Source: a virus
Direction: 5' to 3' (one strand)
Virus genome (UHGV): UHGV-1637942
DNA length: 15,511 bases
The position numbers and the translations under genes were made by a program. Numbering within the stretch: the first letter of the stretch is position 1; each line of letters begins with the position of its first letter. This document shows positions 12,417 through 13,922 of this stretch, piece after piece. The notes beneath the pieces are model-generated. The model was not told the origin of the DNA, did not search any database, and saw only the letters and a program-made list of their open reading frames with translations.

Positions 12417-13202
12417 TCATGGCATGGCCATGAGCATTTTCACGTCCGCATCACCGTCTGCTGACGTCTGTGGCACGCCACCCTGTACCGCTGCCGGTGA
12501 ATGGTTCGCCATGAAATGTTCAAACATGGCGGTTGTGGATGCAGAGACCGGTTCTGCCTTACCTGATCCCGCAGCCAGCACAGCCCGGGCGCACTCCACA
12601 GTCATTCCCGGGCAGGCAGCCAGCTGTTCAGCCTGCACCTCAGCCCCTTTTGCCTCATCCAGTGCCATGATCTGATCACGGAGTGATGGTCCGGCATCCG
12701 CCTGCGGTGAAGCAGCCAGGATCGGGCGGGCTTTTTCCACCGTCATCTCCGGCATCGCCGCCAGCGTTGCCGCCAGTTGTTCACGACCGTTCGCTTCTTC
12801 ACACGCCATAATGCGATCGGCTTCACTCTGCGTGGATGCCACCGGCTGCTGCGGTGCCGCCGCGGCCAGAATCGCCCGGGCCTGTTCAACGCTCATGCCC
12901 TGTTGCCCTGCCAGCATCGTGGCAAGCTGTTCACGTCCTTTCGCTTCCTGGCATGTCAGGATCCCCATCACTCGCTGGTTCTCCTGCGCGGCGGCTTCCG
13001 TTGCAGTTAATTGCGGCATAGTGCCTCCTCTGACATTACTGTTCAGCGCCGTGGCCATCACACTGATGGCATCCGACGCATTGATTAATTCATCCGCCAG
13101 CCCGGCCTCAATGCCGGACTGACCTTCAAAAACAGCGGCCTCTGTTCCTGTGACTGCATCAACAGACAGACCGGTAAACATCGCCACTTTTTCGGCAAAC
13201 AT
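12417..13202 (-). CDS. Nu3: Scaffolding protein Nu3, from an in-frame internal start within C (by analogy with lambda)
   Basis: In-frame ATG at 13200-13202 gives MFAEKVAMFTGLSVDAVTGTEAAV..., about 261 aa sharing the C-terminus of C. Placement is by analogy with lambda, where Nu3 is the C-terminal in-frame product of C. The exact start is not verifiable from sequence alone. Confidence 0.45.
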   Translation of the reverse strand: MFAEKVAMFTGLSVDAVTGTEAAVFEGQSGIEAGLADELINASDAISVMATALNSNVRGGTMPQLTATEAAAQENQRVMGILTCQEAKGREQLATMLAGQQGMSVEQARAILAAAAPQQPVASTQSEADRIMACEEANGREQLAATLAAMPEMTVEKARPILAASPQADAGPSLRDQIMALDEAKGAEVQAEQLAACPGMTVECARAVLAAGSGKAEPVSASTTAMFEHFMANHSPAAVQGGVPQTSADGDADVKMLMAMP

Positions 13203-13922
13203 CCGGCGCGCCGCATCAATCCGCTGCTGCATGTCCTGGCGAACCTCTGCCGGCAACGCTTCAAACTGATTGCCATCCACCTTGTGCGCCCCTGAGTAAA
13301 TCAGCGTGATATCCACACCGGCCTGCGCCAGATGACCGGCATAGCTGACATGGCTCATCATCACGCCAATGGAGCCGATACGGGATGTCTGGGTAACCAG
13401 CCGTCGGGAGCAGGCCGACGCCAGCAGCATGGCTGCAGAACAGGCCGTGTCATTGCACAGTGCCCAGACCGGCTTCTGCTGACGGAGGCGGTAAATCATG
13501 TCAGCGCAGTCAAACGCGCCGGCGGCCTGCCCGCCCGGACTGTCAATGTCCAGCAGTACGCCCCGCACCTGGCTATCCGCCATTGCCTGCTGAAGACAGG
13601 CGACAATACCGTCATAGCCTGTCATTCCGGAAAATGGCCGCATACCGCCCAGCCGGTGCACCAGCGTGCCGGTCACCGGCAGTACAGCAATACCGTTCAC
13701 CACCCGGTAAACACGGGCCGGTCGTTTACCTCCGGCCATGTACTCGTCCGTTTCAGCCAGCATTCCGGGAGCATCAAGCTGTACCTGTTGTTGTGGTACC
13801 GAAAGACTTGCTGCCCCTATCTCGCGCCCGAGCGCGCAAAAGAAAACCCGCGCATAGGCGGGCTCCAGAAGCAGCGGTTCATTGAATGCTGCGGCAATAA
13901 TGTGTGAAAGATTACGTCTCAC
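12417..13922 (-). CDS. C: Head maturation protease / minor capsid protein C (ClpP/SppA-like serine peptidase) with a C-terminal scaffold (Nu3-like) region
   Basis: ORF of 501 aa, ...AAFNEPLLLEPAYARVFFCA...NGIAVLPVTGTLV...GMTGYDGIV...LLDIDSPGG...SIGVMMSHVSYAG..., recognisable as lambda gpC. Apparent GTG start at 13920-13922 overlaps the portal stop by 11 nt. The C-terminal third has three tandem ~50-aa repeats. Confidence 0.9.
   Translation of the reverse strand: MRRNLSHIIAAAFNEPLLLEPAYARVFFCALGREIGAASLSVPQQQVQLDAPGMLAETDEYMAGGKRPARVYRVVNGIAVLPVTGTLVHRLGGMRPFSGMTGYDGIVACLQQAMADSQVRGVLLDIDSPGGQAAGAFDCADMIYRLRQQKPVWALCNDTACSAAMLLASACSRRLVTQTSRIGSIGVMMSHVSYAGHLAQAGVDITLIYSGAHKVDGNQFEALPAEVRQDMQQRIDAARRMFAEKVAMFTGLSVDAVTGTEAAVFEGQSGIEAGLADELINASDAISVMATALNSNVRGGTMPQLTATEAAAQENQRVMGILTCQEAKGREQLATMLAGQQGMSVEQARAILAAAAPQQPVASTQSEADRIMACEEANGREQLAATLAAMPEMTVEKARPILAASPQADAGPSLRDQIMALDEAKGAEVQAEQLAACPGMTVECARAVLAAGSGKAEPVSASTTAMFEHFMANHSPAAVQGGVPQTSADGDADVKMLMAMP
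12558..12971 (-). repeat. Three tandem in-frame repeats (period ~147-150 bp, ~50 aa) inside the scaffold region of C/Nu3
   Basis: Protein units: VMGILTCQEAKGREQLATMLAGQQGMSVEQARAILAAAAPQQ / IMACEEANGREQLAATLAAMPEMTVEKARPILAASPQ / IMALDEAKGAEVQAEQLAACPGMTVECARAVLAAGSG. The DNA units are visibly similar, e.g. ccaggatcgggcgggctttttccaccgtcatctccggcatcgccgccagcg (about 12716) and ccagaatcgcccgggcctgttcaacgctcatgccctgttgccctgccagca (about 12866). Confidence 0.7.

Follow-up and report, generated by a model that had tools for sequence, protein, structure and literature searches.

Three copies of a predicted three-helix unit in the protease/scaffold gene of a phage 21-type prophage

In the virus genome UHGV-1637942, the C-terminal region of a lambda-C-like head maturation protease contains three in-frame copies of a motif that lambda carries once. 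The stretch of DNA analyzed here (15,511 nucleotides, hereafter "the window") belongs to a phage 21-like prophage of E. coli and raises the question of what the repeated unit is, when it was triplicated, and what three copies may contribute to head assembly. The triplication itself is already known, as it is annotated in the GenBank record of phage 21, and it is largely ordinary. What the present analysis adds is a count of the unit across the family, a fold predicted with confidence for a domain that is not yet catalogued, and a natural allelic series of two to four units.

The protease/scaffold gene and its three units

The window represents the head-tail operon of a lambdoid prophage, in reverse, because the genes neighboring the 501-aa gene are of lambda type and lie on the same strand. 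The upstream neighbor encodes a lambda-family portal protein (Phage_portal_2), and its end overlaps the protease/scaffold gene by 11 nt (13912-13922); genes 4 and 5 of phage 21 are likewise annotated as overlapping. The downstream neighbors encode a D-like decoration protein (HDPD), an E-like major capsid protein (Phage_cap_E), and FI (Packaging_FI), and they are followed by further genes of lambda type (FII, Z, U, V, G, T, H, M, L, K, and I). Positions 1-2680 of the window harbor plus-strand ORFs without a Pfam match (e.g., 292-1245, 317 aa). This region follows a lambda I-like gene located on the minus strand and is therefore probably part of a J-like tail tip gene, which would be absent from the ORF list because it runs off the left end.

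Judged by its database matches, the 501-aa gene encodes an S49 protease of the lambda C type whose C-terminus is a Nu3-like scaffold region (Table 1). The match to PF01343 scores 119.6 bits against a cut-off of 24.9 (E = 1.6e-34, Pfam), and the whole protein is assigned to PHROG 53, head maturation protease (E = 5.6e-228), whereas the NCBIfam SppA domain match of the S49 region is under its curated cut-off. PHROG 8940 ("capsid assembly protein") and PHROG 8399 ("head scaffolding protein") each match three stretches of the protein. By homology, the protein would be expected to cleave scaffold and capsid proteins during maturation. The nested start reads GAGGAGG-CACT-ATG, leaving 4 nt between the GAGGAGG and the ATG at 13019, and the putative ribosome binding site of the phage 21 record M81255 is equivalent to 13026-13030 of the window. 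The nested coding sequence is annotated in both phage 21 records, as "gene 6" in M81255 and as "scaffolding protein" in OL657228.

Table 1. Coordinates of the protease/scaffold gene and its parts in the window.
Feature	Position	Strand	Details and source
Head maturation protease/scaffold gene (phage 21 gene 5, lambda C analogue)	12417-13922	minus	501 aa, GTG start; ORF list, translation
S49 serine peptidase domain, residues 146-293	13044-13487	minus	Pfam PF01343 Peptidase_S49
Shine-Dalgarno-like GAGGAGG before the nested start	13024-13030	minus	read from sequence
Nested in-frame scaffold gene (phage 21 gene 6, lambda Nu3 analogue)	12417-13019	minus	200 aa, ATG 13019-13017; annotated start, expression putative
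Unit 1, residues 314-358	12849-12983	minus	profile match 71.7 bits; contains M81255 "Tri1 box" (12849-12952)
Unit 2, residues 368-408	12699-12821	minus	profile match 72.9 bits; contains M81255 "Tri box" (12702-12812)
Unit 3, residues 415-453	12564-12680	minus	profile match 70.7 bits; contains M81255 "Tri3 box" (12558-12671)
Non-repeated C-terminal tail, residues 455-501	12420-12560	minus	translation

The motif copies are approximately 40-45 aa long and begin at residues 318, 371, and 418. The conserved unit (I-x-x-x-x-E-A-x-G-R-E...L-A...M-T/S...A-K/R..L-A-A) occurs three times in the 501-aa protein and once in lambda Nu3. Pairwise local BLOSUM62 scores among the units range from 81 to 101, compared to a mean of about 25 (SD 5) for composition-preserving shuffles (z = 11-15), and a profile of 41 positions built from an alignment of the units matches each of them. 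Unit 3 is the most diverged copy, with GAEVQAEQ in place of GREQLAxx. The spacing between the copies is 53 and 47 codons, or 159 and 141 bp. DNA identity between the copies is only 60-67%; Tandem Repeats Finder reported no array over the unit region, and a DNA repeat search of the same region found matches of 12-22 nt and none longer. The repeat is thus visible at the protein level only.

These results can be compared with the initial annotation, which had placed a tandem triplication at 12558-12971, a span that is exactly residues 318-455. It had described three in-frame copies separated by Pro/Gln/Ser-rich linkers in a Nu3-like scaffold region. The copies are present, their similarity stays well above background in a proper alignment, the linkers are seen in the translation, and PHROG and the phage 21 records agree on the scaffold region. 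The proposed DNA period of about 147-150 bp needs correction, as the spacing (mean 150 bp) is not uniform, and the description of the copies as near-identical tandem DNA repeats is contradicted by their low DNA identity.

The 501-aa gene shares 98.9% nucleotide identity with gene 5 of phage 21 (M81255, OL657228), gapless over all 1506 nt. The gene in the window is essentially gene 5 of phage 21, with gene 6 nested in it in the same way and with three repeat regions that correspond one to one; as a prophage allele, it shows point differences only. In M81255, gene 6 includes the "Tri1 box", the "Tri box", and the "Tri3 box", which are annotated as repeat_region features and are each described as "function unknown; putative". 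When placed on the window by gapless alignment, the three boxes coincide with the three profile matches, and the Tri3 box starts at 12558, the same coordinate at which the initial annotation had started the repeat. The paper accompanying M81255 is reportedly that of Smith and Feiss in Gene, 1993. A literature search found no paper describing the phage 21 head genes, the Tri boxes, or the copy number of the unit, and prior knowledge of the triplication rests on the GenBank annotation. As far as annotation goes, the result is routine: a phage 21 gene 5/6 pair with a known triplication.

The OL657228 record also annotates two "CII binding site" features (ttgynnnnnnttgy) inside the gene. One of them, TTGCCGCCAGTTGT, falls within unit 2, at 12767-12780 of the window on the plus strand. 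It is antisense to a late head gene and appears to be no more than a pattern match.

Relatives, age, and copy-number variants

In lambda, the corresponding protein has one full unit (residues 359-400), followed by a short vestige (DRLM...). The 501-aa protein aligns with lambda C through the protease and unit 1 (BLASTP, E = 5e-142, 54% aa identity). The arrangement in lambda is homologous, with the same in-frame nesting of Nu3 in C and the same position between the portal and decoration genes, and differs in having one unit instead of three. The lambda unit corresponds to unit 1, with which it shares 62% identity, compared to 56% with unit 2 and 46% with unit 3. The linker from the protease to the unit is about 36 residues longer in lambda than in the window, and the net length difference between the two proteins is 62 residues because the two extra units are offset by this longer linker. 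The length of 439 aa quoted for lambda C in the initial annotation is correct. That length had been read as consistent with "at least one" extra copy; there are two, and lambda carries a single unit rather than the same three, so the arrangement is an expansion relative to lambda.

The wider family gives a similar picture. A search of the unit profile against 1.84 billion cluster representatives recovered 808 proteins at E ≤ 0.001. Among the best 150 of these 808 matches, 60 proteins are full-length (≥380 aa), and 59 of the 60 have one unit; the only three-unit protein among them is P0090 (505 aa). Because a single unit is the rule across the wider family, the triplication is a lineage-specific expansion. 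Two distant and shorter proteins, P0100 (198 aa) and P0158 (223 aa), each have two profile matches 60-85 residues apart, although the second match in P0158 is weak (15.9 bits). These two proteins may represent independent duplications of the unit in other lineages.

Comparison with a Salmonella prophage protein (P0028) indicates that the expansion is old rather than recent. Each unit finds its best match in its positional counterpart, with identities of 84% for unit 1, 76% for unit 2, and 61% for unit 3. As the units match position for position, the triplication predates the divergence of the prophage lineages of E. coli and Salmonella. In a set of 105 unique three-unit alleles, units 1, 2, and 3 have pN/pS values of 0.12, 0.27, and 0.22, respectively, compared to 0.15 for the protease domain and 0.28 for the C-terminal tail (residues 455-501). 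With values of 0.12-0.27, each of the three units is under purifying selection. Across distant relatives, in a set biased by having been selected by the unit, the unit is as conserved as the catalytic core and much more conserved than the tail.

Copy number nevertheless varies among close relatives. A total of 81 sequences was scored, consisting of 80 IMG/VR loci, with protease domains 98-99% identical to that of the window, and the window's own protein. Complete 501-aa ORFs with three units account for 79 of the 81, in a sample that is not independent because the 80 loci were ranked by similarity to the three-unit allele. The other scored loci are one 451-aa ORF with two units and one ORF cut by the end of its contig. 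In the E. coli and Shigella protein clusters, alleles of 482 aa have a 19-residue deletion inside unit 2 ("2.5" units), and alleles of 451 and 452 aa are unit 1/unit 2 hybrids. Further alleles have 472 aa or 551 aa (four units), and there is also a diverged E. coli protein with four units. All length variants keep the C-terminal tail, which ends in DADVKMLMAMP.

In the DNA of four variants, the in-frame breakpoints fall at strings shared between the units (CGTGAACA, CACCGCAG, CTGGC-GC, and ATGAC), and these microhomologies are 5-8 nt long; the junction in the four-unit record includes an N. Short microhomologies between the units occasionally give rise to in-frame deletions and duplications, and the copy number drifts in this way. 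The region had been proposed as a hotspot of slippage or recombination between near-identical repeats. Rearrangement between units does occur, but it proceeds through these microhomologies and not through long identical repeats.

In IMG/VR, an exact pattern over the part of unit 2 that the 482-aa alleles lack had at least 120 matches, a count that overstates three-unit genes because alleles of the 451-aa type match as well (L101, L109, and L157, three of the six loci with this junction). Exact junction patterns matched 8 times for the 482-aa allele and 6 times for the 451-aa allele in IMG/VR, and the 452-aa junction pattern had no match there. Junction-spanning 80-mers searched against complete E. 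coli genomes reach 100% coverage on three-unit genes as well, which makes those counts unusable for the 482-, 451-, and 452-aa alleles. A protein search with a 201-residue query returned mostly fragments and served for spotting variants, not for frequencies. Full-length matches in all 18 of 18 deposited phage records align over 1500-1506 nt in one piece and thus have three units each. A full-length match to the gene is present in more than 1800 complete E. coli genomes, a figure that pools three-unit and shorter alleles.

In the assembly collection, the exact 482-aa protein P0266 occurs in 3592 blocks, compared to 26 for the exact protein of the window, both figures referring to single exact alleles and not to length classes. 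In P0266 (locus L084), a 57-nt in-frame deletion removes the second half of unit 2, and this allele probably belongs to a lineage of E. coli that has been sequenced heavily. In IMG/VR, the majority form appears to be the one with three units, although this is weakened by the overlap of the patterns and by the abundance of P0266 elsewhere. The capsid proteins adjoining the 2-, 2.5-, and 3-unit alleles are 94-99% identical to that of the window, and those beside the 2- and 2.5-unit alleles are intact.

Predicted fold and candidate role of the unit

The unit is predicted to form a three-helix mini-domain of approximately 45-50 residues. An AF2 model of residues 304-366, which include unit 1, is based on an 82-row alignment of diverse units and has a pLDDT of 89.3 and a pTM of 0.71; its helices span model residues 4-19, 28-35, and 42-51. 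In this model, the invariant E-A-x-G-R-E is part of the turn that precedes helix 2, and helices 2 and 3 are connected by the P-G-M-T/S loop. When the whole scaffold region (201 residues) was modeled by AF2 from a single sequence, confidence was low (pLDDT 62.6), and that model serves as a hint only. A Foldseek search of the unit model against the PDB returned nothing significant, and the best matches in BFVD (TM-scores of 0.81-0.85) belong to C-terminal regions of further S49 prohead proteases, a cyanophage protein among them. Searches of Pfam, NCBIfam, and PDB sequences gave no model or match for the unit, which is covered by PHROGs alone. The unit deserves a domain model, since Pfam and NCBIfam have none.

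The best explanation, to which we assign a probability of roughly 0.55, is that the unit is an anciently triplicated protein-binding mini-domain common to the protease and the scaffold that gives both of them multivalency. The C-terminal approximately 200 residues of the S49 protease would also be made alone from the internal start as the scaffolding protein, and the unit would be the conserved core of this shared region, present once in most relatives, including lambda, and triplicated long ago in the phage 21/Salmonella prophage lineage. Each unit may act as a binding module that tethers the protease and the scaffold inside the assembling shell, with the major capsid protein or other scaffold molecules as its partner, and three units would make each molecule multivalent. 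Since the units are common to the protease and the scaffold, co-packaging of the protease would follow under this proposal. In herpesviruses (UL26/UL26.5) and phage P2 (gpO), the protease and the scaffold share a C-terminal assembly region that carries the protease into the procapsid. The gene in the window would follow the same logic, while the protease families and sequences are unrelated or only distantly related. We know of no case of tandem triplication of the assembly module in either UL26/UL26.5 or gpO.

We infer the binding role and the multivalency from the reported partners of Nu3 and from the helical coat-binding elements of other scaffolds. The interaction map of lambda includes the pairs Nu3-E, Nu3-Nu3, Nu3-C, and Nu3-B (PMC3224144). 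Helical or helix-turn-helix elements that bind the coat protein are found in the scaffolds of P22, SPP1, phi29, and 80alpha (PMC11565965), and small helical elements near the C-terminus of the scaffold bind the N-arm of the capsid protein in such systems (PMC11565965; PMC11922011). The unit resembles the helix-turn-helix coat-binding domain of the P22 scaffold, and the elements of SPP1, phi29, and 80alpha, in being small, helical, and near the C-terminus, which is an analogy of mechanism only. It differs from the P22 domain in its three predicted helices, its repetition, and its position away from the extreme C-terminus. Searches of PDB sequences and Foldseek searches found no sequence similarity and no significant structural similarity between the unit and the solved C-terminal domain of the P22 scaffold.

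The contact with the shell could also be made by another part of the protein. In herpesvirus and HK97 proteases, the C-terminal tail is the capsid-binding element, and the non-repeated tail (residues 455-501) would be an equally plausible shell contact here. If the tail contacts the shell, the units may be flexible spacers or modules for scaffold self-association, and their number would set the reach or the packing density in the prohead. The reported Nu3-Nu3 interaction (PMC3224144) is consistent with this alternative, as are the presence of the tail in every length variant, its constraint (pN/pS 0.28), and the occurrence of two to four copies beside near-identical capsid proteins. It nonetheless seems doubtful to us, as the unit is far more conserved than the tail in distant relatives (in the unit-selected set), the model confidently predicts a compact fold and no disordered spacer, and the unit sequences are under purifying selection. 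Three copies may not be needed in any event, because the 2- and 2.5-unit alleles adjoin nearly the same capsid protein. Alternatively, the two extra units may be redundant leftovers of an old duplication, tolerated and adding nothing over the one unit of lambda. One unit suffices in 59 of the 60 full-length representatives among the best 150 of the 808 matches, and alleles with 2 or 2.5 units are widespread, as illustrated by the 3592 assembly-collection blocks with P0266. Redundancy of this kind is unlikely, however, given that pN/pS is 0.27 for unit 2 and 0.22 for unit 3 and not approximately 1, that each of the three units has been retained at its own position in both the E. coli and the Salmonella lineages, and that they are present in every one of the 18 deposited phage records with a full-length match and in an apparent majority of IMG/VR.

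The repeat might in principle be an artefact, either of composition in an alanine-rich, low-complexity region or of assembly. The region is indeed rich in Ala, Gln, and Glu, and it contains no DNA array detected by Tandem Repeats Finder. A composition or assembly artefact is refuted by the scores against shuffles (z = 11-15), by the approximately 70 bits obtained per unit, and by the profile search that also matched 808 clusters elsewhere. The same three units also occur in two independent phage 21 sequences, and the full-length gene match in more than 1800 complete E. coli genomes, with its length alleles pooled, argues in the same direction, so that the probability of an artefact is negligible. 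In the initial annotation, repeat number had been suggested as a possible means of tuning procapsid assembly. We also considered whether copy number follows capsid size. This idea is unsupported, as phage 21 has more units than lambda and yet a smaller genome (42.9 kb vs. 48.5 kb).

A triplicated protein-binding mini-domain remains the preferred reading, and it would be of use because little is established about how scaffold and capsid touch in lambda-like phages. Should each unit bind a partner, a natural series of scaffold valencies against an almost constant capsid protein would be at hand in phage 21 and related prophages, and the number of contacts required per scaffold molecule could conveniently be addressed with it. 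A bolder proposal, which we would sooner doubt than adopt, is that the unit is an uncatalogued three-helix assembly domain common to more than 800 clusters of S49 prohead proteases and scaffolds, with its copy number (one to four, possibly five) acting as a natural setting of valency. If true, E. coli prophages would constitute an allelic series (2, 2.5, 3, and 4 units) in which scaffold valency could be related to procapsid nucleation, fidelity, and protease loading.

Rearranged relatives of the gene

Several proteins with units have undergone larger rearrangements. The top match of the unit profile, P0046 (270 aa), has an N-terminal region of about 55 residues resembling the start of a DNA methyltransferase (…DLIVCDPPYG…), and a scaffold region with three units follows immediately. 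The fusion probably represents a prophage ORF that is chimeric or has been rearranged. On a 5.6-Mb E. coli contig, P0233 (657 aa) has five units through a tandem duplication of 156 residues that takes in the last part of the protease domain, the first two units, and half of the third. The two copies of the segment differ slightly (LTDELVN vs. LADELIN), and the duplication may have arisen by recombination of two prophage alleles or by misassembly.

Two kinds of E. coli fusion proteins, P0312 (721 aa) and P0317/P0319 (577 aa), both break right after ...ARAVLAAGSG, the end of unit 3. Past this point, they run into unrelated sequences, one of which has a repeated HTH/HxH motif. The shared break may reflect either large prophage deletions with the same endpoint or a recombination-prone site.
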